Source of the DNA: an uncultured Dehalococcoidales bacterium
GTDB lineage: Bacteria; Chloroflexota; Dehalococcoidia; Dehalococcoidales; W111
Direction: 5' to 3'
NCBI GenBank assembly: GCA_964575695.1
Contig: CAZNSC010000003.1
Span: 1 to 56,818, forward strand
DNA: 56,818 nucleotides
Part shown: piece after piece, positions 23,636 to 50,354 of the stretch
Layout: each line of letters begins with the position of its first letter
Position numbering within the stretch: the stretch's first letter is position 1
Made by a program: the position numbers and the translations under genes
The notes under the pieces: generated by a model
Told to the model about the DNA's origin: nothing
Database searches by the model: none
What the model saw: only the letters and a program-made list of their open reading frames with translations

Positions 23636-23788
23636 GCAGCTTTGCACGTTTAAGGCAGATGCCACCGGCTAAAAACCTAGGATGTCAATACCACGACAGG
23701 TTGATCGAAAAACCTCTAAAGAGATGACAAAATAGACTTATATTGGGTTGTGTTTTCATAAATACCGGGTGTTCATAGGAGGAAGAAA

Positions 23789-24538: not shown

Positions 24539-24764
24539 ATGGGAAAAGGGGATGTGTTCAGGTTTGTATAACGGCGGTGCATTGCCAGGTAGATAACATG
24601 GAGGCGATAGCGAGGGTGACAGGAATAGGTTACGACACCTCGAAATCATAGAAGGGGGGGAACGAACTTATTCACGCTGAGCATCTGGCGAGAACTGGAG
24701 AAAATGATCAAGCTACCAGGTTAGTCTTCCGCTAACAAACTGACATAAGCAAAGGAGTAAAGGG

Positions 24765-25457
24765 ATGAATATACCGAAGCGCTTATTAATCGAGTATGAG
24801 GATGGCTCGACAAAGGCAATGCCTTTCAGCGATGTAGATAGGCAAATGCAGTTTGAACTGGCAAAGTTTGGAGTTTGTCCACCACCCGGTGGGGTCAGGT
24901 CATCAAAGCAGTATCTCGTGTTTAGATGGAACGATAAGTGGCAGGAGGTTGCCGGTCTAGACAGTGATGTCGCCGAGCTATTGCGATACTATGTTGTCGA
25001 GAGAATCGAAAACAGTGGAAGACTTGCACTTGAAGTCGGGAATGACTATCCGGAAGTGTTTATCATCGGGCGAAAGCCAAGGGAATTGACCAGCTTATTG
25101 ATTATCGATAGAAACAGCGGCGTGAAGTCATATGGGATGCAATCTGAAGTGCAAAGACGGGAAGGATTCCTTGACGACGGCGGTAAGAACGAGTACGTCA
25201 AGTTTGATAAAAAGGGCCCGCGTTATCCTCATGAATTTAGCGAAGAGCCTGATACCTTGGCTGAAGTAAGGGACTCCGTAAAAAGAGAACTGGACGCGAG
25301 AGGACTCAGTCCCGAGCAGTTGTTGGCAATGGACGAGCCCGAGCGTATTGATTCCTACAAAGAGGTCGCTAAAGGGATAGGCGTGAGAGCAAGAGAGAGA
25401 CAGGAAGACGTGTATGGTTTCATTGAATTGATGGTGGGATTTCTGGCTGCCCGATAA
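24765..25457 (+). CDS. Hypothetical protein (230 aa)
   Basis: AAAGGAG RBS. No family recognised by eye. Embedded in the UbiD/kinase operon. Confidence 0.6.
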   Translation: MNIPKRLLIEYEDGSTKAMPFSDVDRQMQFELAKFGVCPPPGGVRSSKQYLVFRWNDKWQEVAGLDSDVAELLRYYVVERIENSGRLALEVGNDYPEVFIIGRKPRELTSLLIIDRNSGVKSYGMQSEVQRREGFLDDGGKNEYVKFDKKGPRYPHEFSEEPDTLAEVRDSVKRELDARGLSPEQLLAMDEPERIDSYKEVAKGIGVRARERQEDVYGFIELMVGFLAAR

Positions 25458-25599
25458 AGGTAGAAATTTGGGTAATGGTGACACCACGGTTTTCCAAGAG
25501 AGGTAATAAGAAGGATAACGACAGGTATGGGAATTTGCCGCATCGTAGGTGAGCTATTCAGGAGGAAGGGGAGATATTGTTGTAAAAAAGGGGGGTGTC

Positions 25600-26688
25600 A
25601 TGTGTTCAAGCAAACTGATTTTCTGGTTTGAAGAGATTGGTGGCGAACACAGCGGCCTGGTGGGCAAGAAGTGTGCCAACTTAGGCGCTATGACTCACAT
25701 GGGAATGCCGGTGCCGTACGGGTTTGCCATATCACTCGATGCTTACAAGAAGTTTCTGGAGGCAACAGGAGTCGTGAAGGAGATAGCTAGCTATGTTAGC
25801 AGTCTGGGCGAGCTCAAGGATGCCGGGATTGCCGTTTTTGAAGAGATAAGCCAAAACATACGCGCTATGATAGAAAATCAACCAATTCCAAAAGACTTGA
25901 AGACAGAAGTGGCTTCGTATTACGAGCGGTTATCCGATAAAGTGGGAATTCCTGAAGTTCCAGTTTCGGTTAGGTCAGCCGGAACAGAAAGCCGGCCGGG
26001 TATGTTCGAGACGTACTTAAACGTCCAAGGACGGGAAGAGGTACTGGATAAGGTGAAAAGGGTATGGGCGAGTGCTTTCACTCCTCGAGCTATCGCCTTC
26101 CGCATCAATAAAGGGATGCCGATTGATGGTGATATGCTTGGTGTTGGTGTGGTTCAGATGGTGAACGCCAAGGCCGCTGGCATTGGTTTCACTGTGGACC
26201 CGGTCAGTGGTGACCTGTCAAAGATAATTGTGGAAGCTAACTGGGGTTTGGGAGAGGGGGTCGTTAGTGGGGCAGAAACCGTGGATAGATTCGTAGTGGA
26301 CAAGCAGAGCCTTGAAATCATAGAGAGGACAGTGGGTCAAAAGTCACGGCGGGTAGTGAGCAAAGGGAGGGGTGCTGAGTGGGAGGAGGTTCCTTCAGAC
26401 ATGTGTCAGGTCTCATGTGTAAACGACGAAGAAATAAAGGAGATCGCGAAACTGGCTAGGTTGCTTGAAGACCGGCTGGGTCAACCCCAGGATGTAGAAT
26501 GGGCTATTCACCCCAGTCTTCCCTTCCAACACAACATCTTTCTACTACAAACTCGTCCAGCAAAGGTGGCAATGGTGAAGCCACAGTCAGTCAGTGAGCA
26601 GCTTGCCGACAGGATAGTAAGTTGTTTCAGGGAGATTGATCTATCACCGGCTAAAGACCGGATAAAAAGGATACAAATTAAGTTCTAA
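25600..26688 (+). CDS. PEP synthase/PPDK N-terminal ATP-grasp domain protein (phenylphosphate synthase beta-like)
   Basis: GGEHSGLVGKKCANLGAMTHMGMPVPYGFAI and VSVRSAGTES motifs of the PPDK_N nucleotide-binding domain. About 40 kDa with no His-swivel domain. Confidence 0.85.
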   Translation: MCSSKLIFWFEEIGGEHSGLVGKKCANLGAMTHMGMPVPYGFAISLDAYKKFLEATGVVKEIASYVSSLGELKDAGIAVFEEISQNIRAMIENQPIPKDLKTEVASYYERLSDKVGIPEVPVSVRSAGTESRPGMFETYLNVQGREEVLDKVKRVWASAFTPRAIAFRINKGMPIDGDMLGVGVVQMVNAKAAGIGFTVDPVSGDLSKIIVEANWGLGEGVVSGAETVDRFVVDKQSLEIIERTVGQKSRRVVSKGRGAEWEEVPSDMCQVSCVNDEEIKEIAKLARLLEDRLGQPQDVEWAIHPSLPFQHNIFLLQTRPAKVAMVKPQSVSEQLADRIVSCFREIDLSPAKDRIKRIQIKF

Positions 26689-26757
26689 GGGGATGCGGAA
26701 ATGAGCAAGTAAGTTGATCAAGGCATTCAGACGAAAAAACCAAATAAGGAGCAGAAA

Positions 26758-28530
26758 GTGGAAAATGAAGCAAGATGGGCGAAATGGGAAGCTGTAAAGC
26801 CAGTGTCGGCGAATTGCATATGGGATGTAGGTCCGGGGACTGATTTCGTGCCTGAGGTTGATATACCTACGTATCATTCGTTGTTTCTGGACGAAACACA
26901 TTCCTCACCACCGGTTACACCACTATTTAGCCAACACGGGGCCAGGTATTGGAGCCTTGGCATTACCGAGGTTAACGAAGACCTGGGCATACCCACCTGC
27001 CGTGGCTTCATCTGGAAGCACAAGGAAGGTGGGCTTTACATTGCCTTCCTTGTGGTTAGAGATCCAGAGGAGATAAAAAGGCGGGAGGCAAGATTCAGAG
27101 AGGCAATACGTCCTTATCTTGAGGACTTTGGTGGCTTCTGGCAGAAGAAGAAGAAAGAGTTGAAGGATCTGTACGAACGTCTTAAGCAATTTAACCCTGA
27201 AGGGGCAAGGAATGTTGATCTTCTGCATCACCTTTGGGACATTGAGACAGCTTCTCAAAAGGTGTGGGAAGCACATTTCACCGGGATGCAGCCTTCTTAC
27301 ATGGCTTGGGTTCTCCTTGAAGAGGAGTGTAAGAAGCGCTTCGGCATAAATGACCAGTCCCCTGAGTTTCAGGACATGATGAGAGGGTTTGATAACGATA
27401 TATACCGAGTTGACAAGCAGATATGGGAGCTGAGCAAGCAGGCACTTGACATGGGACTTGGCGATGTATTCAGGGAGAATGAGCCCGAGGCTATAATGCC
27501 TAAACTCGAAGTGACGGCTAAGGGGAAGGAATGGCTCAAGAAGTACAATGATTTCCTCCAAGTTCATGGGTGGAGGGTAGTCCGCATGATGGATCTCGTC
27601 AACCCCTACTGGCTGGAGAAGCCGAGCATCCCATTAGAGACGATGAAGAGTTACATAGTTAGCGGCATAGCAACGAAAAAAGAATATATTATGGATGAGA
27701 GAAGAAGGGAGGTTTCAGCAAAGAGGGAGAGCGCAATCAAAGCGATGCTTAATAGGGTGCCGCCGCAGGATAGCGAGTGGTTCAGGTCACTAATAACTTT
27801 AGCACAGTGGGCCAGCACCTACAGTGAAGAGCACGATCTTTATTGTGAGTTCACCTCACATGCATTCTTCCGTCGCGGCTATCTGGGGATAGGCAAGAGG
27901 TTTGCCGAGGAAGGAGCTATAGACCGGCCTGAAGATGTTTTTATGTTGGGTCCTTGGGAAATGGAAGCTCACATGCTTTTGCCACACCAAGTAGACTTTC
28001 GGTGGCTGACAAGGAGACGCCGAGCTCAGTGGGAGGAATGGGTAAGGAGGTTCAATGCGGAAGGCGAGTGGAGACAGCGTCTTTACACCGATCGTCCCGG
28101 CGGGTTTGAAGAAGCAGTAGCCGAGGATTTGTTGCCATCGAGGGATCCTATTGTCACCAAAATCGTTATCGGTGAGATGCCAGCGGTGACGGCGGAAGAA
28201 CTTCGTGCTGATATAGTGGGTCTCTGCGGCTCCCCTGGGCAGGCTGAAGGAGTTGCTCGCGTCTGTAAACAATATGCTGAGCTTGACAGACTCCAGCCAG
28301 GTGAAATTCTGGTGTGCACCGCCACCGATGCCACTTGGACGCCAGGCTTTAACAAAGCAGCAGCTGTTATTACCGACAAGGGAGGGACTCTTTCCCATGC
28401 AGCTATTGTCGGTAGGGAATATGGATTGCCAGTGGTAGTGAATACCTTCGTCGGGACACAGAAGATTAGATCGGGGCAGCGGGTCAGAGTAGATGCCGCC
28501 CAGGGAGCCATTTACATTCTGAATAAGTGA
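26758..28530 (+). CDS. PEP-utilising enzyme with C-terminal mobile His domain (phenylphosphate synthase alpha-like)
   Basis: The C-terminus DKGGTLSHAAIVGREYGLPVVV is the phosphohistidine swivel signature. The large N-terminal domain is of unknown specificity. GTG start after AAGGAG. Confidence 0.8.
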   Translation: MENEARWAKWEAVKPVSANCIWDVGPGTDFVPEVDIPTYHSLFLDETHSSPPVTPLFSQHGARYWSLGITEVNEDLGIPTCRGFIWKHKEGGLYIAFLVVRDPEEIKRREARFREAIRPYLEDFGGFWQKKKKELKDLYERLKQFNPEGARNVDLLHHLWDIETASQKVWEAHFTGMQPSYMAWVLLEEECKKRFGINDQSPEFQDMMRGFDNDIYRVDKQIWELSKQALDMGLGDVFRENEPEAIMPKLEVTAKGKEWLKKYNDFLQVHGWRVVRMMDLVNPYWLEKPSIPLETMKSYIVSGIATKKEYIMDERRREVSAKRESAIKAMLNRVPPQDSEWFRSLITLAQWASTYSEEHDLYCEFTSHAFFRRGYLGIGKRFAEEGAIDRPEDVFMLGPWEMEAHMLLPHQVDFRWLTRRRRAQWEEWVRRFNAEGEWRQRLYTDRPGGFEEAVAEDLLPSRDPIVTKIVIGEMPAVTAEELRADIVGLCGSPGQAEGVARVCKQYAELDRLQPGEILVCTATDATWTPGFNKAAAVITDKGGTLSHAAIVGREYGLPVVVNTFVGTQKIRSGQRVRVDAAQGAIYILNK

Positions 28531-28543
28531 GTCGGCATTCAGG

Positions 28544-28708
28544 TCAATGTGAGCCATGGAGTGGCATTCCCCTTCGGCGCCATGGCGGCGTCGGAGCTGG
28601 ATTAGTCGTCGCAGGGGCTGCAGGTGGCGGTTGAGCGCAACCTGCAGCCCCGATCGTGAGAAGTAGCATTAGGGTTGGTGCTAACGAAAACCATTTCATC
28701 TTATTCAT
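28544..28708 (-). CDS. Possible small lipoprotein (54 aa)
   Basis: My translation is MNKMKWFSLAPTLMLLLTIGAAGCAQPPP.., a signal peptide plus lipobox. It contains the inverted repeat at 28614-28651. Confidence 0.35.
   Translation of the reverse strand: MNKMKWFSLAPTLMLLLTIGAAGCAQPPPAAPATTNPAPTPPWRRRGMPLHGSH
28614..28651. repeat. Perfect 12-bp inverted repeat with 14-nt spacer
   Basis: GGGGCTGCAGGT (28614-28625) / ACCTGCAGCCCC (28640-28651). No flanking T-run on either strand. Confidence 0.7.
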
Positions 28709-28800
28709 CGAAAGTGTATTTCCTCCTCTCGTTTTCTTTTCTCAAATTCTCTGGTGCTTCATTTTTGCCATCTACATCCTTGGCCTCCTCCCGTGGGAAC

Positions 28801-28908
28801 TTCACCAAGGCTCAGGTCACAGCCCAGTACCGTAAATTCTCCCCCTGGGTAGGTTATTCAACGGCAAATGAAAATCTGACTTCACTAGATCGGAAACCAT
28901 CTCAATAG
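28801..28908 (+). pseudogene. Decayed 3' end of a tyrosine recombinase gene (paralog of 49245-50258)
   Basis: NFTKAQVTAQYRKFSPW aligns with HFTSAQITEQHHKYSPM at the integrase C-terminus. It lies at the same distance (~115 nt) from the shared att-like repeat. Confidence 0.45.
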
Positions 28909-28940
28909 TGGCTAACACCTTGAACCTAAGTCAGCGTCTC
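28908..28940 (+). repeat. att-like direct repeat, left copy
   Basis: GTGGCTAACACCTTGAACCTAAGTCAGCGTCTC vs 50259-50293 GTGACTAATACACCATGAACCTAAGTCAGGGTGTC. The 14-nt core TGAACCTAAGTCAG is identical. Confidence 0.45.
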
Positions 28941-28967
28941 AAGTATTTACACAACGGCAACCGTTTA

Positions 28968-29162
28968 CTATGACCCAGCAAATCCGCGGAGGGCTGTTAT
29001 CGAACCCAAGAATATGTCTCCTGGAGGGCGCGTAGCCATAGGATTATTGCTGGCAATGTTGTTAATGATAGGATTGACTACCGGCGTAGTCATACTGGCA
29101 CTCATAAAGGTTTGGACGTTGGCGGAGGGCCAGCCCTGGTGAGTTTGTGCAATCTTTGACAT
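28968..29162 (-). CDS. Hypothetical 64-aa protein, possibly leaderless
   Basis: The ATG lies a few nt downstream of a promoter duplicated from the FHA-wHTH gene promoter. No family match. Confidence 0.35.
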   Translation of the reverse strand: MSKIAQTHQGWPSANVQTFMSASMTTPVVNPIINNIASNNPMATRPPGDIFLGSITALRGFAGS

Positions 29163-29171
29163 GTAAGATTG

Positions 29172-29200
29172 TTGTTAGTGTGAAGTCAGGTAATTGTCAA
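29172..29200 (-). promoter_or_regulatory. Promoter (TTGACA-N17-TAACAA), duplicate of 31736-31764
   Basis: On the minus strand, GCTTGACAATTACCTGACTTCACACTAACAACAATCTTACATG is ~85% identical to the FHA-wHTH promoter region. Confidence 0.5.
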
Positions 29201-29277
29201 GCACAATCTTCAAAGTTAGTAGTTAAATGATATTACGACCTAGGATTATAAGAATTTATATCCAAAGGAGTATAAAA

Positions 29278-30809
29278 ATGAACAGACTTACATCAAGAAG
29301 ACTCAGTGCTATACTTTCCTGCCTCACGATTCTCGCAATATTTGGGACCATTAGCTTCCCAGCAGTAGCGTCGGCTACAGCTAGTGATGCTGAACTGCTT
29401 GCTCTAACACAAAACACCACCGTGGTGGCATTTAAACCGTCAGGCACATCCAGCAGCCCTAATAGCATTGCAGTTGTTACCGATTCAACTGAGACCCGCC
29501 TGCTGGTCGTCTTGTCCAAGTATAACAGTATTGACGAGCTTAACAATCCCGCGAGAATAGGCCTTGGATCCGATAATGAAATACCATGGCTGCAGGCGGC
29601 ACTAAATTCCTACGGTATAGAGTGTTTTCCCATTATTGTACCCGAATCGGATACCTACAATGCCTTAATCAGAGGTGTGGTGGATGCTGTCCTTGTGACA
29701 GCACACCCCTCCCCTTCTCTGCAGACGGGCATTGAATCAGGCGAATTTCGACTTGTTCCGTGGAGTGAGGAAGCTGTTGCGGCTGTTGTTGAAGTCTATC
29801 CGAATTCCGTGATTCCTGCCCAACTACCAGCAAATACCTACGCCGGGCAAAGTGATGCTATTTTGGGTTACGCGTACCTCCCGCCAATCACTCTGACCGA
29901 AGACTTCACGCTTACTTCCGACATGACCTTCAGTGATACCGGCTTTATTATCGGTGCCGACGACATAACCCTGAACCTGAACGGTCATACCATAATTGGA
30001 ATCTCTCCTCTTCCAATACCGCCCGGCACTGACCCTGTCACCACTGAGGTCGGTGTCCGACTGGGGGAACATACTGGCGTGACCGTCAAGAATGGTACGA
30101 TCAAAGGATTCCAGGTCGGCATTAATCTCATCGGTGCGGATAACAACATCATCAAGGGGATTGTCGCCACTCGTAACAGCTGGGGTTTGTCTCTTTATGG
30201 CTCTAACAATAATCTCATCAAGAGCAACGCCATCAGCAACAACACTCCGGCAGGCATAATGCTCAATGATTCTGACAGCAATACGATAACTGGCAATACC
30301 ATAGAGGGAAATGGAGCCGCTGGCATCGTTATTGCTACAGAAGCGGATAATAATGAAATCCGGGACAACCGCATCAGCAACAACGGTCTAAATGGAATAA
30401 GGCTCGGTGCCTCTCCGGTCGACCCGCCCGGAGCACCCCCGGCGAATAATCCGATAGACGGCAACACCATAGAGGAAAACGGACGAAACGGCATTATTAT
30501 CACCAATGGGGCCCATGATAATGAAATCGGGAACAATACAATAAAAGGCAACGGATTAATCGGGATATTCGTCGGTGCCGCTCCACCACCGGGGCCACTA
30601 CCACCGCCACCACCGGGGCCACTACCACCGCCGCCACCAGAGCCACCGGTGGACCCCCGGTGAACAATCAGATTAACGGCAACAAGCTGTCCCACAACGC
30701 GACCTACGATATACAGGACGTCACCAGTGGAGAAGCTGACTTTGGCACAGCCAATTTCTACCAAGATAATACAGGCAAAACAAGCGACCCGGCAGGTCTG
30801 GTCCGGTGA
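29278..30809 (+). pseudogene. Secreted binding-protein-like domain plus parallel beta-helix (PbH1/NosD-like) repeat protein, frameshifted at a C5 run
   Basis: Signal peptide, then a domain paralogous to the C-terminus of 35885-36817, then beta-helix repeats (NNNLIKSNAISNN, NTITGNTIEGNG..). The frame breaks at 30654-30658. One extra C restores ...PPVDPPVNNQINGNKL... through the stop at 30809. Confidence 0.7.
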
Positions 30810-30962
30810 GGCAACAGCTGGCTGTGTTTTAAGTAAAACCAATAGAACTTTTGATTTAAGGTGTCAAAACAGGAAGGGAGCCCCCGGGAGGAATGCGATG
30901 ATGAGAGGGTGGTGCTTGGTTTCTAATTCAGAAGAGGAGCACTGCCTTCTCTGGCTTGCTTT

Positions 30963-31637
30963 TCACACAAGCATGTAGCCAAAGCCTTTTCGGATAATAA
31001 GGCGTTGTGGTTGTGAAGGGTTCGGTTCTATTTTCGCCCTGAGTCGGTGAACAAGCTGGTCAATGGCAGCATCTGATACACCACCTTGATCAATCGCCTC
31101 AGGCCAGACCTCCGAAATTAACTCATCCCTCTGGCAGACTCTGCCCACTCGATTATACAGGCATAATATGAGATCATATTCTTTTCTCGACAGAATGAGC
31201 TTTGTTTCATCTACCCAGATTTCACCTCTGCTCTCGTCTATCCTGAGCCAACTAATAGAACTGCTTTCGCTTATTTTAGCTGGCTCGATACGGGTAGTAG
31301 AGACTGTATGGTATTCTTTGAATCGCAGTATCACACGAGCCCCTACATCGGTAATTCCCAAGCCGATCACGGAATCATGCTTTAATGGATAGAATTTCTC
31401 CGGTGTGATTCGCACTTCATCTATTGTAGTCCCGTTGGTGCTTCTAAGGTCACGCAGCTGGAAACAATTATTCTTGAAATCTATTTCTGCATGTCGCCTT
31501 GAAATATATTCATCATGTAAGGTTATATCGGGATTTCTCTCGGTATTTCTCCGCCCTATAAGCACGGGATTTTCCCCCAGAGAGAACCTCTTACCAATAT
31601 CCAGGTTATTTCCTATCTCTACTATTATGAAAGCCAT
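30963..31637 (-). CDS. FHA domain fused to an OmpR/PhoB-type winged-helix DNA-binding domain
   Basis: N-terminal FHA (LIGRRN..DEYISRRHAEI..LRDLRSTNGT). C-terminal LSRKEYDLILCLY...VHRLRAKIEP...IRKGFGYML. Confidence 0.85.
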   Translation of the reverse strand: MAFIIVEIGNNLDIGKRFSLGENPVLIGRRNTERNPDITLHDEYISRRHAEIDFKNNCFQLRDLRSTNGTTIDEVRITPEKFYPLKHDSVIGLGITDVGARVILRFKEYHTVSTTRIEPAKISESSSISWLRIDESRGEIWVDETKLILSRKEYDLILCLYNRVGRVCQRDELISEVWPEAIDQGGVSDAAIDQLVHRLRAKIEPNPSQPQRLIIRKGFGYMLV

Positions 31638-31735
31638 ATTTCCCTGATATACATTGCGTTCTTAATCGGTATCTTATGCTGAACAGCCTATAATTCAGGT
31701 ATAAGCCATCTTGCTATGTCAGATTGATGTTAGAT

Positions 31736-31764
31736 GGTAGTCAGGGAATTGTCAAGCGCCTTAT
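31736..31764 (-). promoter_or_regulatory. Promoter of the FHA-wHTH gene (TTGACA-N17-TAACAT)
   Basis: -35 at 31759-31764 and -10 at 31736-31741 on the minus strand. About 90 nt upstream of ATG 31637. Confidence 0.5.
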
Positions 31765-31897
31765 AAAGGCACCGGCTATTATCACATTAGTAAATCCAGG
31801 AGATAAACTTACTGAGTATAATGTCAGCCGGCTACTTACAACTGCTCTCTCAGACCAGCAGCTGAAAACTCAAAGACGGCCCAATAGAGCAGAATAA

Positions 31898-32527
31898 ATG
31901 GGAATAATTGAGATCGTATTAACTATTTGGGCATGGAACCGAGGATGGAGAGGGTGGTCCCTGTTACCCACTTGTATCGGATTGGCTATCGTACTTATCG
32001 TCGGGTTTGTTTTATACGATGCGGGAGTGCTTAAAATAGTTGTACCCAACTTAGGGGGATTAGTTATTATTGATCTGGTCGTTATTTGCGCGTTGATTTT
32101 TATGGTGGCTAGACCACGGGAAAAGCCGCCTGCTCCCACAGTAAATCTGGCTTCCCCACTATCTCAGGTGGCAAGTGACCCATATGGCAAACCGATGAAT
32201 ATGGTGCCTGCGGTTATTTGCCATATGGTCAAGGCTAAGCTGATACTACCGGATAGGAGCGAAATCCCACTTGGTGGAATGGTCAGGCAAATAGGAAGGA
32301 ACGACTTTGAAAGACTCGTGTCACCAGAAGCTCTCCGTTATATTTCCAGACAACATCTCTGGATAAAGTACGATAATGGCAGGTACTTCGCGGAAGATTC
32401 CTATAGCGCCAATGGTACCAAGGTAAATATGATTGAGATAAAGGGCAAAGGGTTACAGGAACTAAAGGATGGCGACCTTATTGATATCGGTGGAATGATA
32501 CAACTTATTTTTAAGATACTATCCTAG
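31898..32527 (+). CDS. Membrane-anchored FHA domain protein
   Basis: Three N-terminal TM helices. C-terminal FHA (IGRNDF...ISRQHLWI...SANGTKVN). Confidence 0.8.
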   Translation: MGIIEIVLTIWAWNRGWRGWSLLPTCIGLAIVLIVGFVLYDAGVLKIVVPNLGGLVIIDLVVICALIFMVARPREKPPAPTVNLASPLSQVASDPYGKPMNMVPAVICHMVKAKLILPDRSEIPLGGMVRQIGRNDFERLVSPEALRYISRQHLWIKYDNGRYFAEDSYSANGTKVNMIEIKGKGLQELKDGDLIDIGGMIQLIFKILS

Positions 32528-32573
32528 GAGCGAGTGATTTTCACAAGTTGCTTGCGGAAAGTAATTCCGGCAG

Positions 32574-33440
32574 GTGCTATGCATGATGTTGGCAGGGGAA
32601 ATAGGCTTATCTTTCGAAACAGCAGCCTTAACCGACGTGGGCATGGTGAGAAAAAACAACGAGGACTGTTTCTTCGCACTCGATGGAAGTGAGCCTAATG
32701 CATTCGGGGCGGAATCTTACGGGATATATATAATTGCCGATGGTATGGGTGGCCACAGAGCCGGCGAAGTCGCCAGTCAGATGGCAACGCGAATATTATC
32801 TACGACTCTGATTGATAGCCTGAGACGGGAAGGCAAATCACGGCCTCCTTCTTACCTGGTGAAGCATACTATTGAAAAGGCGAATAGACAAATATTCAAT
32901 ATGGCTGTGAGTAGACCTGAGCTATATTCGATGGGGACTACAATTACCGTGGGTTTCAGATTGAATAACGCATTATACCTCGGACATGTAGGGGATAGCC
33001 GGGCTTACCTGATAAGAAAAGGAACGATACGGCAGTTAACGGAGGATCATTCCCTGGTTGCCCGGTTACTGAAGGAAGGAAAAATAACGCCAGAGGAAGC
33101 AAAGAAGCATCCCGACAGGGGAAAGATACTGCGATGTCTTGGCGCTTCGGACAATGTCACCGTCGATACACTTATTCAAAATGGCAAGGCGAGGAGACTG
33201 AAGTTATACAACAGCGACACCCTGTTGTTTTGCTCCGATGGGTTGACCTCTCATGTTCCTGACAGTGAAATCTTTTATTACATTGAGAAGAGTGATAATG
33301 CCGGGAACGCATGCAGGAGACTAATTGATCTGGCGAATCACAAAGGCGGAGGGGATAATATTAGTATTATAATTGTAAAAGTAAGTAGGAGTGAAAAGGA
33401 TTTCCAGACTATTATCAGGAGTCTGCGAGTGTTGAAATAA
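32574..33440 (+). CDS. PP2C-family Ser/Thr phosphatase
   Basis: RKNNEDCF, ADGMGGHRAGEVAS, GDSRAYL, CSDGL and GGGDNISIIIV motifs. The start codon is uncertain (32574-32586). Confidence 0.9.
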   Translation: MLCMMLAGEIGLSFETAALTDVGMVRKNNEDCFFALDGSEPNAFGAESYGIYIIADGMGGHRAGEVASQMATRILSTTLIDSLRREGKSRPPSYLVKHTIEKANRQIFNMAVSRPELYSMGTTITVGFRLNNALYLGHVGDSRAYLIRKGTIRQLTEDHSLVARLLKEGKITPEEAKKHPDRGKILRCLGASDNVTVDTLIQNGKARRLKLYNSDTLLFCSDGLTSHVPDSEIFYYIEKSDNAGNACRRLIDLANHKGGGDNISIIIVKVSRSEKDFQTIIRSLRVLK

Positions 33441-33656
33441 AGGGGCTTAGGAGAAGCCAAGGACATGACATAAAGACCATTAAAGCGGTAAGCCGGTTCA
33501 CAATCGGGCTCCATAAAGCGAAAATTTCTGAATGGGATAAAAATAATGTTAAGGAATCTGAGTGAATAGTTTTGAAAGGTTTCCCAGAGTGGTTATGATG
33601 GGACTGAATATTTGACAATTGAAATTAGAGAGAACCCTGGTTATTAGAGCGCAATA

Positions 33657-35882
33657 ATGGCTGAAAAGACATGCCCAAACTGCAGTAAACCGTATCAAAC
33701 AGGGGACGAAATCTGCCAATACTGCGGCTTTGTCTTCCCTTTCTCAACCGTAATTCTACCGTCTGGGGCAGTCCTTAAAGGTAGATATGAAGTCCAACAA
33801 CTGATCCATTCCGGCGGAATGGGTTATGTCTACCTGGCTAAGGATAAGAATCTATTCGACCGGGCATGTATCGTGAAGCAGGTCAGAGAGCGTATCCACT
33901 CTGATGAGCACCGGAAGAAGCTGGAGGAAGAAGCCCTGAGGATGGCAAGATTAAATCACCCCAACGTGGCCATGATACTTGACCACTTCGTGGAACTGGG
34001 TTACTACTTCCTTGTGGTGGAACGAATTCATGGAAAAACATTAAGCGAAGTCTTCAAGGAGTGCCAGGGACAGCTTAGGGAAGGCGAGGTGGTTAGGTGG
34101 GCAATAGCCATCTGCGATGTAATTGCCTATATCCACAAGGAGGGGGTCATTCACCGGGACATCAGTCCAGATAACATCATGCTGACGGAAGAGGGTGCGA
34201 TCAAGTTCATTGATTTTGGCACGTTACGAGAGCTCCGGTATGTCGTTCCGGAAGGGACAGCCGGGATGGGGAAATATGGTTACACACCACCGGAACAATG
34301 GGAGGGAAGGCCTGAGCCTAGGTCGGATATCTTTGCGCTGGGAGCTACGCTATATTATCTACTCACCGGCTTTTTGCCGTTGTCAAAAACATATCGGACG
34401 GGACAGGCACCACAAAAAGAGGACTTCTACCCCAAGTTCCCTCCTATCAGGAACAAAAATCCCAATGTCTCTCCCAGCCTGGAAGCTATTTTACAAAAAG
34501 CTCTGCAATTAGATATCAATAGCCGGTATGTTTCTGCTATGGAAATGCGGCAGGCTTTCGTTAAGCTCGAGCAGGAGATAGCCAAATTTGAACCTAAAAC
34601 TAAAACAATAACCAGGAAGAAGAGACTAGGTAAATCCCGGAGGTATACAAAAGCAGCCATAATGACAATACCGGTTCTGGTTTTCATCGGGGTAGGGCTA
34701 TTCGTGCTCGTACACGGAAACCAGGATGTCCCACCACTGGAACCGCAAATTACCCCCTTAGCGGTTGGGGGACTGCCCATCACCGTCACTGAAGACTATA
34801 CCTTAACCCGGGACATCACTTTCAGGGGAGATGGATTCATCGTAGGTGCCGATAATATCACACTTGACCTGAATGGGCATACCATAACTGGCGAACCTCT
34901 CTCGGCTGATCGTGGCATCTTGGTCTCGGGTCGCAACGGCATAACCATCAAGAATGGCACCATCACTGGTTTTTCACAGGGAGTCCAGCTGGGTCATGCT
35001 GACAACAACGTAATCCAAGATATAATCTCACAGAATAATACAGCGAACGGTATTCATATTATTTCGGATTCAGACCATAATCTGATAGACGGTTGTACTT
35101 TCACAGGTAATGGTGATTGTGGAATTTCTATTGATGGTTCCGAGGGTGTCTTGCCATCAAAAAATAACACAGTTCAGAACTGCACCATATCTAATAATCC
35201 CGATGGTATAAATGCTTACTACTCTGTAGGTAATTCACTGGTTGGCAATACTATAAACAAATTCTCCGGCTCCGGCATATTTTTAAAATATTCTGAAAGT
35301 AATCACGTTTTGTTTAACCGAGTTTCGAATGACGGAGTCTCTATTGGCCAGGGAATTCATCTAGATGACACCTGCAGTTTTAACGTTATACAAGGCAATA
35401 ATATATCATCCTGCAATGTGGCGGGGATAATGAGTGATGGTATCGATTCAGAAGACAATCTGGTACAAGGCAATAATATATCAAACTGCGGTGGGGTTGG
35501 AATAGAGATTAATGGCACACAGAATGAAGTCCGGGATAACAATATCGAGAATACAAGCGGACCGGGTATTAGGATAAGGAGCAGCAATAATGAAGTTATA
35601 GGTAATACGGTCAGTTATTCGGCCAGAAATGGCATTGTACTATGGCCACCAGCCGCAGGCAATATGGTAAAAGAAAATCAAGTCTCATATAGTGGCTCTG
35701 ACGGTATCGCTGCTGCGGCAGGTTCCAATGGGGCGGCAACTGATAATACCATCATGAAGAATGAGGTAAATAAGAGTGTTGGCTATGATCTCATTGATTG
35801 GCACGCTCCAACACCCGCAAATACCTGGATAGATAATGTTTACACGACCTCAAACTTTGTAGACACAATTGCCAAGAGGTAA
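33657..35882 (+). CDS. Hanks-type Ser/Thr kinase: zinc ribbon, kinase domain, TM helix and extracellular beta-helix repeats
   Basis: CPNC..CQYCG, glycine loop SGGMGYVY, VKQ Lys, HRDISPDN, DFG, one TM helix, then PbH1-type repeats paralogous to 29278-30809. Confidence 0.9.
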   Translation: MAEKTCPNCSKPYQTGDEICQYCGFVFPFSTVILPSGAVLKGRYEVQQLIHSGGMGYVYLAKDKNLFDRACIVKQVRERIHSDEHRKKLEEEALRMARLNHPNVAMILDHFVELGYYFLVVERIHGKTLSEVFKECQGQLREGEVVRWAIAICDVIAYIHKEGVIHRDISPDNIMLTEEGAIKFIDFGTLRELRYVVPEGTAGMGKYGYTPPEQWEGRPEPRSDIFALGATLYYLLTGFLPLSKTYRTGQAPQKEDFYPKFPPIRNKNPNVSPSLEAILQKALQLDINSRYVSAMEMRQAFVKLEQEIAKFEPKTKTITRKKRLGKSRRYTKAAIMTIPVLVFIGVGLFVLVHGNQDVPPLEPQITPLAVGGLPITVTEDYTLTRDITFRGDGFIVGADNITLDLNGHTITGEPLSADRGILVSGRNGITIKNGTITGFSQGVQLGHADNNVIQDIISQNNTANGIHIISDSDHNLIDGCTFTGNGDCGISIDGSEGVLPSKNNTVQNCTISNNPDGINAYYSVGNSLVGNTINKFSGSGIFLKYSESNHVLFNRVSNDGVSIGQGIHLDDTCSFNVIQGNNISSCNVAGIMSDGIDSEDNLVQGNNISNCGGVGIEINGTQNEVRDNNIENTSGPGIRIRSSNNEVIGNTVSYSARNGIVLWPPAAGNMVKENQVSYSGSDGIAAAAGSNGAATDNTIMKNEVNKSVGYDLIDWHAPTPANTWIDNVYTTSNFVDTIAKR

Positions 35883-35884
35883 TT

Positions 35885-36817
35885 ATGAACCGAATACTGA
35901 CCGCTGCACTGGTACTTATACTAACCACATTATTGTTCATGGCGGCTTGTGCAGCACCGCCACCACGGTCAGCTAGTCCGAAACGGGCACAAGGCCAAGC
36001 TTTCATTATGGTCATTGAAAGAGTTCAAGGCCTGGCCCAGACGTATGAGGCAAAAGAATATGTAGCACTACTCTTTCCTCCCCTTTCCGGAGAGAGTGAA
36101 TATGATGAGGAACTAAGGGCATGGGTAATAACAATAACAGCTTTTCCACCTGAGGCACGTGAAGGGTTTGTAAGGGCACTGTGGTACAACGGTGATGTCG
36201 ATGAGCATTTCTCGTCACTCAAAGAACCTGAGTGGGTAGTATACGATTATGGCAGGATTGTACCTATGGGTGGGGCATTCATGATAGAAGCTGACATAGA
36301 ACAGCTAAATATAGCTAAAATACTACCTGCCTCACCACCAACACCACAGCCAGCGCCAACACCGACGCCTATCCCAGCTCCGACACCAGTACCAGCACCA
36401 GCTCCACCGAGGCCTACAATTACTGTTCATCTTCTTGCTGTCCTGCACTCCAGATACGATAGTATCGCTGACCTACCAGATAAGGCTAAAATAGGTACTA
36501 TATACGGCCAACAAGAACCACGGTTGAAAACAGCGTTAGCAACTTATGGGACTTCTTTCGAGCTTTTTATAATCCCCAGCCCTGAGTGGTATGAGGCATT
36601 GAAAAGGCCAGTAGATGCCGTGCTTGTTCCATCTCATCCTTCGCTTTATCTGCAGGAGTTTATTGCATCAGGTGAGGTACTACTTCTACCTTGGAGTAGC
36701 AAGGCAGTTACAGCGGTGATTGATGCATATCCAGAGACGACTATATTGGCTCGTCTACCCGCCAATACTTACGAAGGGCAAACAAAGAGTATCTTAGGTT
36801 ATGCGCCATCCAATTAG
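35885..36817 (+). CDS. Lipoprotein with Pro/Thr linker and C-terminal solute-binding-protein-like domain
   Basis: Lipobox LFMAAC and a PTPQPAPTPTPIPAPTP linker. The C-terminal domain (..LPANTYEGQTKSILGYA) is paralogous to the N-domain of 29278-30809. Confidence 0.8.
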   Translation: MNRILTAALVLILTTLLFMAACAAPPPRSASPKRAQGQAFIMVIERVQGLAQTYEAKEYVALLFPPLSGESEYDEELRAWVITITAFPPEAREGFVRALWYNGDVDEHFSSLKEPEWVVYDYGRIVPMGGAFMIEADIEQLNIAKILPASPPTPQPAPTPTPIPAPTPVPAPAPPRPTITVHLLAVLHSRYDSIADLPDKAKIGTIYGQQEPRLKTALATYGTSFELFIIPSPEWYEALKRPVDAVLVPSHPSLYLQEFIASGEVLLLPWSSKAVTAVIDAYPETTILARLPANTYEGQTKSILGYAPSN

Positions 36818-37360
36818 CCACTGACGCCACTCACCGCCAAGTTCGGCATAGGATAGGGGGTCTTTATCTTCTGGACAAGCTGAAATCACAGTCAACGCTT
36901 CCCCCTTTCAAGAGGGCAAGCGTTCAAGTCAGAGCTTCGCCATATTCAGTTTTTAAGGTGCTTTTTATGTTTTCAGCTTTATCATCCAACAATTAGTCAT
37001 AAGGTGAAATTTCAAGAACTAGCTTGTTTTAGAATAGGAGGAGAGGATTATGCAGGTAATAATATTGTGACATTTTAAGAACTACGGCGAGGTGAAGAAC
37101 TAGGTGGGGAGTCTCGCTATGCTACCGATAGATTTCTTGTTTCACCTCTGGGTAAGATGGAGCCAACAGGTTTCGGTGAGGTGCAGAAATAGCTGGGAAG
37201 CTTGAGACTGTCCCGCAAAATAGATTGCCTGCCGGCCCTCGATAGTCCCGATTTAGGAAATTGGGGTGTTATTGAGACAGCCCCGGAATAGGAGACAAGC
37301 GAGGGAGTGGGGATGCCGGCTCGTTACCGCGGAGCCTGAAAACGTACGAGGAGAGTGTAA

Positions 37361-38782
37361 ATGATCAAAAGTGTGGGCATCGACCTGGGAGGCATAGGAG
37401 AGCACAGGGTGAGATGTCTGGATGAAGAGGCGCAGATGTGTGACAGCTTTGGTTTCGATACTACGAGGGTAGGATTAGCGAAATTGGAGGAGCGTATTTT
37501 CAAAGACGGATCAAACCCTGTCATCGTCTTCGAGCCTACTGGTTTGGCCTGGCTTCTGGTGGCGGTTTATCTCAAGTCAAAGCATCCCGATTCTCGGCTG
37601 GTGAGAGTCCAGGCGCAGAAGGTGGTTGCCCTGCGAAGGTACCTGAACAGATCATCCAAGAGCGATAAGATTGATTCTCTCACCCTGGCCAAGATGCCCT
37701 TTATCGATCCGGAGAAGCTAGAGGAGATATACCTGCCACCGGGCAAAATCTACGCCATACAACGTTTTACCCGCCAGCGGAAGCGGCTGGAGAGTGAAAT
37801 TGCCGGGCATAAGAAAAGGATTGGGTCTATTGTGGACGGACATTACCCCGGGATAAGGAGCGCCTTCTCGGATCCCTGGTCAGCCCACGCCAGGGCTTTT
37901 CTTCGCTCCCGCTTGAATCCGTTAACCGTGGTCCGTGCCGGTGAAAACACTCTCTGCAGGTTTTTAATCAAGGCAAGGAAACACGGAAAGATCGAAGCAT
38001 CGGTGGAAAGCCATGGGGTCTATCTTGTATGTCGAGAGCTGGCATCTCTCTATAAGGCATCCAGCTTGGTTGAAACAATAGACGATGACTTCTTCTCATC
38101 TCTACAGGAAGAGATTTCCCGTGAAATGAAGCTCCTTGAGATAAAAGAGGCTGAGTCTGCGGCTATAGCCAAACGTCTCGAGAAATTATATCTTGAAATT
38201 CATCCCTCTGATAATCTGCGGACCATACCTGGCGTCGGTGACCATACCGCTCCCGTTTTTCTGGGAACGATAGGAGATCCGGCACGATTCAGGAGTCAAT
38301 CATCTTTTGCCAATTACTGTGGAATCGTGCCGGGTGCGAATCAATCGTCGGACTCGGAAGCCAAGGGTTTGAGAATGACTAAAGCTGGCCCGCCTATCAT
38401 GAGGTGGGCTTTGTTTCAGGCGGGCGGGATAAGTCGTGCTCATGATCCTCAGCTCGCCTGTGTCTATTATCGAGAGATGGTACATAACGGGAAGAATCAT
38501 ATGCAGGCCATGGGTGCCGTCATGAGTCACCTGTCGGCCAGAGTATTAGCAGTATTAAGAGAAGATAAGCCATACGAGATTCGAGATATTGATGGTAGGC
38601 CTGTTGGCCGCAAAGAAGCTAGGAAGATAATCCTGGAGAAATATATGGTGCCTGAAAATATACGCAGAGAGAGACGGCGGCGTAAGACTCCCGGTAGCCC
38701 GAGTCTGCACAAAAAGCTGAGGGAGATGTTAGTACCCAGGATACACGAGGCAGCCGAAACTCCTCAACCTGTGGTTACCTAA
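37361..38782 (+). mobile_element. IS110-family element (DEDD transposase ORF; element ends not determined)
   Basis: N-terminal VGIDLG.. DEDD domain. C-terminal IPGVGDHTAPVFLGTIGDPARFRSQSSFANYCGIVP is typical of IS110/IS116/IS902 transposases. Confidence 0.9.
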
Positions 38783-38981
38783 TCATCGCCCGAAAACAGT
38801 TTAGTTCAGAGCTTTGGAGGCGTCAATATTGAGTACTTGACTCATTAGGATATCTATTATGTCGTCCCTCCCTCCAGTGATAGAAGGGAAATAACAAATT
38901 GTGATAAAATACGCTCTGTGAACTCCCCAAAATTTTCCTTGGCATCCCTAAGTAAACGAAGGCGCGGCACGGTAAAGAAGA

Positions 38982-41900
38982 ATGCCCATGGGCAAATTGG
39001 ATACTAATGCAAACGCCAGCCAAAAACCAGGCAAACAGGCTATGAAGTCCGAGACACATGGTTTTCCTGTCGTCGGTATTGGCGCTTCGGCTGGCGGGTT
39101 AGAGGCATTAGAACAGTTATTCGGCAACATGCCGTCAGATAGTGGCATAGCCTTTGTCATCGTGCAACACCTCGACCCGAATACGCGCAGTTCAATGCCT
39201 GAAATCCTGTCCCGCTTTACGAAGATGCCGACACACGTAGCTTCAGATGGGTTGAAAGTGGAGCCAAATTCTATCTTCCTGATTCCGCCAAGCAAGAGCA
39301 TGAGTATACAGGATGGTATACTCTATCTTCATGAACCGGAGCAGTCTCCGGGACTCAGACTTCCCGTGGATTTCTTCTTCCGTTCTCTGGCTAAAGAAAA
39401 GGGGGCAGATTCGATCTGCATTATATTGTCAGGGACAGGGACTGACGGCACTCTTGGCGTTAAAGCAATTAAGGGAGAACAGGGAACGGCCTTCGTTCAG
39501 GATCCGGAATCGGCAAAGTACGACGGCATGCCGCGCAGCGCCATTGACACCGGGCTAGTCGACTTCGTACTCAAGCCAGGCGAGATACCAGAGAAGCTCG
39601 TGAAGTTTCTCAAGCACTCGGCTCTTAACGGAGCGAGGGTCGGCACGGCAAAAGAAGGTACGGAACCATTGCAGCGGATTTTCGCCATCCTGCGGACGAG
39701 GACCGGTCATGATTTTTCCCGCTACAAAGGGTCCACCGTACGCCGCCGCCTGGAGAGGCGGATGAGCGTCAATCAGATTAATGATATCTCCAAGTATGCC
39801 GATTTCCTGAAAGGCAACGAAGATGAGGTGAAAGCACTGATGAAGGATATGCTCATCAGTGTCACCAACTTCTTCCGCGACCCCGAGGCCTTCGAAGCCC
39901 TGAAGGTTCAATTGAAGGCGATATTGAAACAAAAGGCTCAGAATAGTGACCTGCGAGTTTGGGTAGCTGGCTGTGCCACAGGTGAGGAAGCCTACTCGGT
40001 GGCAATAGTCATCTCGGAATGCCAGGAAGAATTGAGAAAGCGTTTACAGGTCCAAGTATATGGCACGGATATCGATGTTGATGCGCTGCGCATAGCCCGG
40101 GCGGGTAATTACCCGGGTAACATTGTCGCTGATGTTACGCCTAAGCGCCTGAAAGACTTCTTTGTCAAACAAGACGGCACATACACCATGAAGAAGGAAA
40201 TACGAGAAAGAATGGTCTTTGCACCCCAGGATTTTATTAAAGACCCGCCATTCTCAAGGTTGGACTTGATCTGCTGCCGCAACCTTCTCATCTACCTGGA
40301 AAGCGATGTGCAGAAGCGGCTCTTGCCTCTCCTTCACTATGCTCTCAAGCCAAGCGGTGTCCTGTTCCTGGGAACTTCCGAAACTATAGGTGAGTCCGGA
40401 GACCTGTTCACCGTGCTGGACAAGAAGTGGAAGATATACCAGCGTCGTGAGGCGCTAGTAGCTGCCGACAGGCTGAAATTCCCTTCCGCTTTTACTCCAT
40501 CTTCCCGAGAGGCTGCGGGGGAGCCGGTTCGGGCTGTCACGGAAACCAGGATACCTGAGCTTACGGAAAAGATTTTCCTCGATAATTACGCGCCTACCTT
40601 TGCCGTTATCGATGATAAGTCCCGGCTGGTCTATGTCCGTGGTCGGACTGGAAAGTACCTGGAGATTGCCTCCGGACAGCCGAGCTTGAGCATCCTGGAA
40701 ATGGCGCGAGAAGGACTCAAAACAGAGCTTGGTTCAGCAATATACCGGGCAACCTCCGAGAAGAAAAAGATTGTCCACCAAGGAGTGCGTGTCAAACATA
40801 ACGGTGGTTTTCAGACGGTAAACCTCACTGTAGCGCCGCTCACCGAGCCCGGGATACCGCCTGGGTTAATGATCGTTGTATTCCAGGAACTGGAGCTTAT
40901 GGCCGGCGAAGCCAAGGCTAGGCCATCCGTGAGAGGTCGCAAACGCGTTACCGAACTGGAAGAGGAACTTCGTCTAACCAGAGAGAGCCTGCAGGCTACG
41001 GTCGAGGAACTGGAGGCGACCAATGAGGAGATGAAGTCAACTAATGGGGAGCTGCAATCCAACAACGAGGAGCTGCAGAGCACCAACGAGGAACTTGATA
41101 CGTCTCGAGAGGAGCTCCAATCGCTTAACGAAGAACTGAATACACTGAACGCCGAGCTTCAAGATAAGAATGAATTGCTGAGTAAAGCCAATGATGACCT
41201 GAACAACTTCGTCAATAGGACTGATATCGCCATCATCTTGCTCGATGACGAACTTAGAATCAGGAGCTACACGCCGGCAACCATTGACGTATTCAACATC
41301 AGGAATGTAGACATTGGTCGCCCTATCGATGAAATCACCTCTCGGCTGGCTTATGACAATATAGTGGACGATGCGCATGAGGTGCTCCGCACTCTCCAGC
41401 CCAAGGAAGTAGAAGTGCAGCGTAAGGACGGATACTGGTATAACGTGCGTATCTCGTCCTATCGCACAGCCCAAAACGTCGTCAGCGGCTTGGTGATGAG
41501 TCTTCTTGACATCAACGAGCAGAAGAAAGCCAGTGAGTCGCTGCGTGAAACCAGGGACTATCTGGATAACCTTATAAACTACGCCAATGCGCCAATAATC
41601 GTCTGGAATCTGGAATTGAAGATTACCCGCTTTAATCATGCATTTGGGCAGCTCACCGGTCGCAGCGCCGATGAAATGCTGGGCAAGAAAGTTGACATTC
41701 TTATCCCACCGGAAAAACGACGTGAGGCACTACAGAAAATAAATCGTACAACAACAAAAGGTCAGCGGTGGGACTCCGTCGAGATTCCAATTCAGCATGT
41801 CGACGGTTCCGTCCGAATCGTTCTCTGGAACTCGGCAACATTGTTCGATGCAGACGGCAGGACGCCCTTGGCTACTATTGCTCAAGGGCAAGATATCACT

Positions 41901-48772: not shown

Positions 48773-48818
48773 GAATGTCAGAGGGTAACCTAAACGTTCG
48801 GCGGTTTTGTCTAGTGCA

Positions 48819-50293: not shown

Positions 50294-50354
50294 GTTAATT
50301 GGATTATTAGTCGGGATAATATCTGAAAAAATGTTCCATTTTCGCGATAGAGTA

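Follow-up and report, generated by a model that had tools for sequence, protein, structure and literature searches.

Several described signalling systems couple a Ser/Thr kinase to partners that carry FHA domains. The vWA/STPK/FHA/PP2C operon DRA0331-DRA0334 of Deinococcus radiodurans features an FHA domain as phospho-docking partner of a kinase/phosphatase pair (bioRxiv 10.64898/2026.01.23.701218), and an actinobacterial triad associates a Zn-ribbon kinase, a PP2C phosphatase and a standalone vWA protein (Kaur et al. 2020, PMC7159879). In Mycobacterium tuberculosis, the receptor Ser/Thr kinase PknH phosphorylates the OmpR/SARP-type regulator EmbR, which combines an OmpR-type winged helix-turn-helix (wHTH) domain with an FHA domain, and the output is directly transcriptional. 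According to a review (PMC8050422), GlnH/GlnX/PknG, acting on GarA, is the only characterised system in which a Ser/Thr kinase is stimulated by a binding protein. The Sulfolobus proteins ArnA (Zn-ribbon-FHA) and ArnB (vWA) are phosphorylated by Hanks-type kinases, with ArnC/D as the kinases of the system, and control the transcription of surface-structure genes (PMC6509490). Here we report the analysis of a 56,818-nt stretch of an uncultured Dehalococcoidales bacterium (contig CAZNSC010000003.1, assembly GCA_964575695.1; hereafter the window) and of a locus of six adjacent genes within it, namely a secreted protein (g1), an FHA-wHTH regulator (g2), a membrane-anchored FHA protein (g3), a PP2C phosphatase (g4), a receptor Ser/Thr kinase (g5) and a lipoprotein (g6). 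Judging from its sequence relatives, this locus is probably a copy, specific to its lineage and partly eroded, of a receptor Ser/Thr-kinase cassette that is recurrent. The type of cassette is already known; its outward-facing parts have been reshuffled here.

The cassette of the relatives has the same gene content as the Deinococcus operon and matches the actinobacterial triad, whereas the window lacks the vWA gene. Unlike either set, the cassette has a dedicated FHA-wHTH factor with its own candidate operator and a kinase with a swappable ectodomain, and the FHA and PP2C domains, fused in Deinococcus (KI-FHA), are separate here. EmbR is ordered wHTH-BTAD-FHA; g2, in contrast, reads FHA-linker-wHTH without a BTAD match, and its gene is divergent from the kinase operon and accompanied by a conserved four-repeat candidate operator. 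The locus shares with GlnH/GlnX/PknG-GarA a binding-protein-type lipoprotein that is genetically linked to a Ser/Thr kinase and an FHA protein as kinase substrate, a role that would fall here to g2. It differs in having no GlnX-like transducer, the kinase itself being the transmembrane receptor, and in that its binding-protein-like part is only one TAXI lobe in the window and a full DctP protein in a related contig (L012). The Arn system resembles the cassette in its co-encoded FHA and vWA proteins, but it is archaeal, has no wHTH fusion and uses a different phosphatase, and its vWA component is the one missing from the window.

The original prediction, drawn from the letters of the sequence alone, proposed a six-gene module with duplicated extracellular domains. 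All six open reading frames (ORFs) are present where it had placed them, and the Pfam and NCBIfam domain assignments agree with it (Table 1). Throughout, A and B denote the first domain of g1 and its beta-helix, B' the beta-helix ectodomain of g5, and X and A' the first and last domains of g6. The domain E values and bit scores come from Pfam and NCBIfam scans; among the ORFs of the window that were scanned, those of 150 aa or more, there was no GAP1-N2 GTPase, no TRAP membrane component (DctQ/DctM-type) and no GltS. The kinase g5 (Pkinase, E 1.1e-36) has an N-terminal Zn-ribbon (CxxC...CxxC) and one transmembrane segment, and its catalytic motifs, read from the translation, are intact: K (IVKQV), HRD, DFG and TPPE. 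Against NF033483, the model of the PASTA-repeat Stk1/PknB equivalog, it scored 203 bits over the kinase part only (cut-off 450). The regulator g2 matched FHA (E 8.6e-19, residues 25-94) and Trans_reg_C (E 3.4e-17, residues 146-223), g3 matched FHA (E 5.8e-11), and both FHA domains keep the canonical residues GR, SxxH and NG that bind phosphothreonine (pThr). The phosphatase g4 matched NF033484 with 245.7 bits (cut-off 230).

The cytoplasmic core of the locus is a recurrent cassette, known here only from metagenomic contigs, which comprises the FHA-wHTH regulator, one or more FHA proteins, PP2C, vWA and the Zn-ribbon kinase. In the nearest relatives (L004, L005 and L003; 84-88% nucleotide identity to the window), the order is a secreted B protein, the FHA-wHTH regulator on the opposite strand, the transmembrane FHA protein, PP2C, vWA, kinase-B' and an X lipoprotein. 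The window genes g2-g6 are full-length ORFs, 78-85% identical to their orthologues; those of g3 are in L004 and L005, that of g4 is in L005, and that of g5 is protein P0010 of L003 (85% identical). Further away, L008 and L009 carry an FHA-Trans_reg_C gene divergent from kinase, FHA, PP2C and vWA genes, located among genes for DNA ligase, peptidyl-tRNA hydrolase and enolase. L011 has the order FHA, PP2C, vWA, kinase, kinase, and two contigs of the JGI sample 3300075153 encode FHA proteins, PP2C, vWA and one or two kinases, with a divergent FHA-wHTH gene on one of them. A metagenome search with g2 retrieved just one close locus. Among representative genome contigs, the search with g5 found only a distant Oligoflexia kinase; no representative genome thus carries the module.

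The regulator g2 is 84-85% identical to its orthologues in L004/L005 and 63% to that in L008. It is accompanied by an operator-like element of 41-47 nt (47 nt in the window), whose half-sites GTAAG, GTTAG, GTCAG and GTCAA (GTNAG-type) follow each other at an exact spacing of 11 bp, framed by TTGACA...TGTCAA. The element can be written as TGTNAG-N7-TTAG-N6-GTCAG-N5-TGTCAAGC; relaxed patterns gave 2 sites only in the 56.8 kb window, for 0 expected by chance, and the two copies are 81% identical to each other. Over 50 nt, copy 1, which precedes g1, shows 94% identity with its counterpart in front of the gene of the secreted B protein (P0011) in L004, a contig that likewise carries two copies, the second in the g2/g3 region. 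Copy 2 is conserved with the same place and orientation in L004, L005, L008 and L009. In L008/L009 it lies between the FHA-wHTH and kinase genes and has been kept despite a regulator identity of 63% and an FN3-like kinase ectodomain, which marks the element as a phylogenetic footprint that goes with the regulator and not with the ectodomain. OmpR/PhoB winged helices bind direct repeats spaced by about one helical turn. This binding habit, together with the regulator-linked footprint, makes the element the likely operator of the g2 FHA-wHTH protein. No Rfam RNA family was found within 28000-39200, and a terminator scan gave a count equal to the shuffled expectation. By eye, we also noticed a small ORF (29015-29143) directly upstream of element copy 1 that encodes a hydrophobic peptide of about 43 aa (MSPGGRVAIGLLLAMLLMIGLTTGVVILALIKVW...).

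The linker of g2 contains a motif, T111..T114-x-x-I117, that is invariant across clusters (T114 codon, 31296-31298). A hydrophobic residue at position pT+3 is commonly preferred by FHA domains, and T114 is therefore a candidate phospho-site, as T114-x-x-I fits this preference. That a pThr/FHA pathway would end directly at a DNA-binding protein, as originally proposed, is well supported by the conservation of the cassette on several independent contigs and by the shared operator-like element. We propose that a ligand of the beta-helix, probably a polymer or surface glycan, would activate the g5 kinase, that the membrane FHA protein g3 would dock onto the phosphorylated kinase as an adaptor, and that g5 would phosphorylate the g2 linker at T114-x-x-I117. 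FHA:pThr contacts between g2 molecules would replace receiver-domain dimerisation, and the wHTH domains would load head-to-tail on the four direct repeats. In this scheme g2 would control the g3-g6 operon, its own gene and g1, and the phosphatase g4 would reset the system. As a secreted paralogue of the ectodomain placed under the same operator-like element, g1 may work as a decoy in a feedback loop or as a co-receptor; docking of a secreted partner to a lipid-anchored one via A/A' is plausible.

To our knowledge, a dedicated transcription factor and its DNA site have rarely been identified for bacterial Hanks-type kinases. The cassette offers a kinase, an FHA-wHTH regulator, a footprinted four-repeat candidate operator and a candidate phospho-site (T114-x-x-I117), so that a response-regulator-like logic based on pThr/FHA becomes directly testable in vitro. 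Equally, we know of almost no signalling data for Dehalococcoidia-like sediment bacteria. Nothing here overturns current understanding, and we regard the value of the locus as moderate.

Outside the membrane, the picture is one of exchange. A search with the g5 kinase retrieved 519 proteins at E <= 1e-20, and the named sources of its relatives are Dehalococcoidia or Dehalococcoidales. Besides g5 itself and one full-length orthologue, the proteins listed are 48-74% identical to the Zn-ribbon + kinase half. A beta-helix ectodomain is present in only three proteins, and the others display FN3/Pur_ac_phosph_N, DUF1080-type, CarboxypepD_reg, PD40 or PQQ propeller, SBP_bac_5, Laminin_G_3, BACON, TPR and further ectodomains. 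The shuffling of extracellular domains announced by the original prediction is hence real: the kinase family swaps its ectodomains widely, and in relatives the X lipoprotein that follows the kinase carries a different cargo. Hundreds of kinases that share a conserved cytoplasmic half (57-74% identical) and differ in their ectodomains resemble the diversification of eukaryotic receptor kinases. A local expansion of the family is seen in L010 (1914-13099), where four tandem kinase paralogues stand behind one FHA gene; all have the Zn-ribbon + kinase half in common, and their ectodomains are PD40, PQQ propellers and BACON/Ig-like. An anti-phage defence function was also considered for the locus and rejected: PADLOC gave only generic kinase-domain matches (PD-T4-6, mad6), and none for the other five proteins.

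The lipoprotein g6 follows a similar logic. Its domain X has no Pfam match even at E 10, and its model reached a pLDDT of about 40. Eight homologues were found, all with a lipoprotein signal, X and a Pro/Thr linker, and with differing cargo domains: A' in P0002, a full DctP TRAP binding protein in P0003, a thioredoxin/redoxin in P0005 and a domain without assignment in P0004 and P0007. Behind the 85%-identical kinase of L003 lies an X lipoprotein that runs into the contig end; in L012, genes for X-DctP and next X-thioredoxin come after the end of the orthologous kinase-B' gene. As both contigs have X lipoproteins there, the slot after kinase-B' appears to be reserved for an X lipoprotein with variable cargo.

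The two beta-helices are true paralogues, as had been predicted from their PbH1/NosD-like repeats and common lead-in: B and B' are identical at 93 of 264 positions (35%, E 4e-32), and the lead-in lies inside the alignment. Both exceed the Pfam thresholds, g1 with 87.1 bits for NosD (1.5e-24) and 77.5 bits for Beta_helix (1.1e-21), g5 with 114.6 bits for Beta_helix (4.5e-33) and 96.5 bits for NosD (2e-27), and each contains four TIGR03804 repeats. TIGR04247, the subfamily of NosD proper in nitrous-oxide reductase maturation, scored 32.3 bits for a cut-off of 300, and no sequence relative of the g5 ectodomain was found in the PDB. In other metagenomes, a joint from 35489 back to 35273 (217 positions back) points to a variable number of beta-helix repeats. 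The secreted B protein of the nearest relatives, P0011 (L004), has no A domain and is identical to the ectodomain of the kinase P0010 of the same sample at 281 of 415 positions (68%) and to the window kinase at 284 of 412. Its gene adjoins the FHA-wHTH gene behind the operator-like element, as in the window. The B domain of the window g1, in contrast, is only about 35% identical to B'. The promoter element of g1 is nearly that of P0011, and the g1 start is preceded by an AAAGGAG site that is conserved with L004. The accessory features that are conserved are thus the X lipoprotein and, as a secreted protein, a copy of the receptor ectodomain. The six-gene set postulated originally is not co-conserved as such; co-conservation is limited to g2-g5, a paralogue of B and a lipoprotein with X.

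The predicted paralogy of A and A' is far beyond chance, with 64 of 128 residues identical (50%, E 1e-31). The tentative assignment of these domains to half of a TAXI periplasmic binding fold also proved correct, and profile, Pfam and Foldseek evidence identifies that half as TAXI domain 2. Domain A of g1 (~145 aa) matched the Pfam TAXI model NMT1_3 with 17.7 bits (cut-off 27) over profile positions 129-219 of 289 only, and A' did not match it, so that neither reaches the threshold across the full two-lobed fold. With domain A alone as query, a word-index homology search gave no match. A three-sequence profile, searched exhaustively against 1.84 billion cluster representatives, returned 68 proteins, about 40 of which have a stand-alone A module. 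The weaker matches are proteins of 320-350 aa aligned only in their central residues (~115-280), and all ten of those checked are full-length NMT1_3 proteins (E 1e-33 to 4e-85). Single-sequence AlphaFold2 modelling of g1 left domain A at a pLDDT below 50; with a 35-row alignment, the A' model reached 95-98. The top Foldseek matches of this model in the PDB are all TAXI-TRAP proteins (9IBP, 8U79, 1US4, 9IBO, 8S4J and 4DDD; E 1.3e-7 to 8.2e-6), aligned over about 140 columns of targets of about 300 residues. The A profile aligns to residues 100-233 of VcGluP (8S4J) with E 2.8e-8, a region equated with VcGluP domain 2, and the motifs DAxLVxxHP and PAxTYxGQ are common to A/A' and TAXI proteins.

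Compared with the TAXI-TRAP proteins VcGluP (8S4J/9IBO), TtGluBP (1US4/8U79) and VCA0144 (9IBP), A/A' superpose on domain 2 only and lack domain 1. Domain 1 provides most of the ligand contacts of VcGluP and also contains Y45 and Q93, the sole positions at which a mutation strongly reduced binding (PMC11574862). A keeps the stretch equivalent to the VcGluP Y200-M201-G203 loop, as DAVLVTxHP. Because domain 1 with its main ligand determinants is absent, a single A domain cannot be a conventional two-lobed (Venus-flytrap) binder, and for the same reason a role as protein-docking modules or as partial sites is more likely for A/A' than autonomous binding of solutes. The multidomain lipoprotein TAXI BP0403 (PMC12344293) resembles g6 in having an extra N-terminal domain and a linker before its C-terminal TAXI-type domain; in g6, only half of the binding fold is present. 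The A family is a rare one without a dedicated Pfam model, and its members are fused to a wide variety of domains, among them dockerin, InlB-type repeats, PKD, PD40, LRR, C25 peptidase, DctP, beta-helix and multi-transmembrane anchors. With TAXI domain 2 standing alone in this family, one may ask what a single lobe of a binding protein can do. One representative, P0158, starts with a zf-HC2 anti-sigma-like motif (C..H..C..C, read by eye) and a transmembrane segment and ends with A, and seems to provide a second, independent link of the A domain to transmembrane signalling. Another, P0197 (238 aa), has a multi-transmembrane N-terminus and a C-terminal A; it is kept in two samples (L013 10001-10717 and L014 8512-9228) between genes for a radical-SAM (UPF0004) enzyme and a methyltransferase, and may be a housekeeping membrane-anchored A protein and a possible dock for secreted A proteins.

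Both A and A' were added in the lineage of the window, as the modules of the nearest relatives have neither. Contigs of three other metagenomes (X2-X4; sediment, mangrove and seawater) are at least 90% like the window from g2 through the X domain, with good depth, and give almost no coverage over g1 (29194-30928) or A' (36481-36827). This joint gain is the best argument for a relationship between A and A', though a thin one (n = 1). The original prediction viewed A/A', B/B' and X as one extracellular ligand-sensing complex. In a fuller form of this model, A-B would be tethered to X-A' by A:A' pairing, A:A' would possibly form a split two-lobed clamshell, and the pairing would bring B to B' and relay solute binding to the kinase. 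Several observations fit: A and A' are the sole A domains in the 56.8 kb, the relatives have instead a B-only protein and other X cargoes, g1 shares the operator-like element with the operon, g6 starts 2 nt after the g5 stop codon and should be translationally coupled to it, L012 has a full DctP binding protein in the g6 slot, and GlnH/GlnX/PknG is a precedent for a binding protein that signals to a Ser/Thr kinase (PMC8050422). Yet the identity of A' with unrelated A proteins (52-53%) equals or exceeds that with A (45-50%), the family is also fused to dockerins, PKD, LRR, C25 peptidase and others in non-signalling neighbourhoods, X-A' (P0002) occurs without a kinase, TAXI domain 2 alone is devoid of the main ligand determinants, and the 3' end of g1 is frameshifted. 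We hence judge such a complex distinctly improbable.

In another explanation, g1 and g6 are mere cargo of the regulon, surface or secreted proteins under the expression control of the pathway, or were placed there by recombination among modular paralogues, with A serving in this lineage as a general extracytoplasmic docking or anchoring module that has no sensing role. The very diverse partners of A, its N-terminal, internal or C-terminal position in the ~40 cluster representatives, the equal portability of X as an N-terminal lipoprotein module, the X-A' protein without a kinase in L001 and the housekeeping context of P0197 all agree with it. It hardly explains why the secreted protein of the nearest relatives is a 68%-identical copy of the kinase ectodomain, nor why an X lipoprotein is kept directly after the kinase in three independent contigs, and we consider it unlikely on balance. 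A more daring combination would have A/A' as a split binding protein, its two TAXI domain-2 lobes, one secreted and one lipid-anchored, closing on a ligand and recruiting B to kinase B'; the A family as a hetero-docking system, either ligand-gated or constitutive, by which these bacteria would organise their surface proteome; and the FHA-wHTH protein with its 4 x GTNAG site as the Ser/Thr-kinase analogue of a response regulator. Taken as a whole, this is a long shot.

The erosion of the window copy is visible at two places. A standalone vWA gene is present in every related cluster inspected and absent from the window, where tblastn detected a remnant (71% over 31 aa at 33470-33562). L005, which encodes the vWA N-terminus with its DVSRSM MIDAS motif, can be aligned with the window as far as 15 nt beyond the stop codon of PP2C (L005 nt 539 = window 33455), and the alignment with L003 resumes 106 nt before the vWA stop (L003 nt 436 = window 33457). 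About 1.2 kb, with the vWA gene except its final ~35 codons, has thus been cleanly deleted between g4 and g5 in the window lineage. The second lesion is at the 3' end of g1, which is frameshifted at a 24-nt tandem repeat (30583-30648), so that the ORF ends in a Pro-rich tail. The continuation in frame +2 (30582-30809) encodes a cap homologous to the C-terminus of the kinase/P0011 beta-helix (..GGPPVNNQINGNKLSHNATYDIQD..ANFYQDN..), and a 39-nt repeat that encodes 'PPANNPIDGN' has its second copy 218 nt further downstream (218 = 2 mod 3). Independently built contigs of X1, the run with 98% of the locus, show 0 differences at the deletion junction and 0 in the g1 3' region. All runs holding the locus appear to be DNA metagenomes. 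In runs X2-X4, low-depth contigs join 32557 to 33551, leading from the transmembrane FHA gene to the region upstream of the kinase without PP2C or vWA.

These lesions, reproduced in an independent assembly, and an IS110 copy ~170 bp downstream of g6 could indicate that the module of the window genome is a decaying remnant whose signalling has been lost. Against this, g2-g6 remain full-length and close to their orthologues, with catalytic and pThr-binding motifs intact, both copies of the operator-like element are intact, and g1 still encodes a signal peptide, A and most of B; we therefore hold complete decay to be very improbable. The preferred reading, a partly eroded copy of a recurrent receptor-kinase cassette, nevertheless faces several counterpoints. 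The loss of vWA and the g1 frameshift suggest that the window copy is possibly impaired in function. The closest homologue of g6, P0002 (70% identical; L001), lies beside an acyl-CoA dehydrogenase gene without a nearby kinase, and the transmembrane-anchored A protein P0197, by its housekeeping neighbourhood, indicates that A-domain proteins are not specific to a kinase pathway. The putative link between operator and regulator is drawn only from co-localisation and from the direct-repeat habit of OmpR/PhoB wHTH domains, and the host organism is uncultured.

Table 1. Position of the cassette genes and associated features in the window
Feature	Position	Strand	Details
g1 secreted protein	29278-30663	+	Signal peptide 29278-29376; domain A (TAXI domain-2-like) 29446-29889; beta-helix B 29884-30576; out-of-frame Pro-rich tail 30577-30660
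g2 FHA-wHTH regulator	30963-31637	-	FHA 31356-31565; OmpR/PhoB-type wHTH 30969-31202
g3 membrane-anchored FHA protein	31898-32527	+	Hydrophobic N-terminal ~75 aa; FHA 32291-32491
g4 PP2C Ser/Thr phosphatase, Stp1/IreP type	32574-33440	+	NCBIfam NF033484 match
vWA gene remnant, final ~35 codons	33457-33562	+	tblastn and alignments to L003 and L005
g5 receptor Ser/Thr kinase	33657-35882	+	Zn-ribbon 33663-33731; kinase domain 33786-34544; transmembrane segment ~34653-34712; beta-helix ectodomain B' 34776-35879
g6 lipoprotein	35885-36817	+	Signal 35885-35947 with Cys22; domain X 35987-36328; Pro/Thr linker; A' (TAXI domain-2-like) ~36413-36814
Operator-like element, copy 1 (candidate)	29156-29202	+	75 bp upstream of the g1 ATG
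Operator-like element, copy 2 (candidate)	31711-31757	+	g2/g3 divergent intergenic region; orientation as copy 1
Frame +2 continuation of g1	30582-30809	+	Homologue of beta-helix C-terminal cap
IS110-family insertion sequence	36988-38782	+	Transposase 37361-38782; adjoins the cassette, outside it

The description of the module as island-borne did not hold. There is no tRNA gene in the window and no GC step at the module edges, GC being 0.44-0.50 across module and flanks. The flanks are ordinary metabolic genes, a related cassette lies among housekeeping genes, and the cassette core is conserved among relatives, counter to what an island would show. The neighbouring genes encode a UbiD-family decarboxylase, a split PEP-utilising enzyme, a CheB-CheR-PAS histidine kinase, a hydrolase and a P-type ATPase. 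The only nearby mobile element is the multi-copy IS110 downstream of g6, whose left edge (~36985-36988) is marked by loose read ends; a truncated integrase lies 12.6 kb from the module.

Within the IS110 region (36828-38782), the 5' non-coding part is 5- to 15-fold deeper than the flanks in four metagenomes. This part could encode a guide (bridge) RNA, as suggested by the NCBIfam family name 'IS110 family RNA-guided transposase'; no Rfam match was found there. The right part of the window (44000-56818) has a lower GC (0.40-0.44) and contains the truncated phage-integrase ORF (49399-49917) and a PD-(D/E)XK nuclease (53224-53892); this stretch may be a mobile region in decay, distinct from the kinase module. 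On the other side, 21938-28530 encodes the UbiD-family decarboxylase followed by the split PEP-utilising enzyme (a PPDK_N protein and a PEP-utilizers mobile-domain protein), a set that resembles the phenylphosphate synthase/carboxylase-type genes of anaerobic aromatic metabolism. Finally, 38982-42584 encodes a 1200-aa fusion of CheB methylesterase, CheR methyltransferase, PAS, HisKA and HATPase domains.

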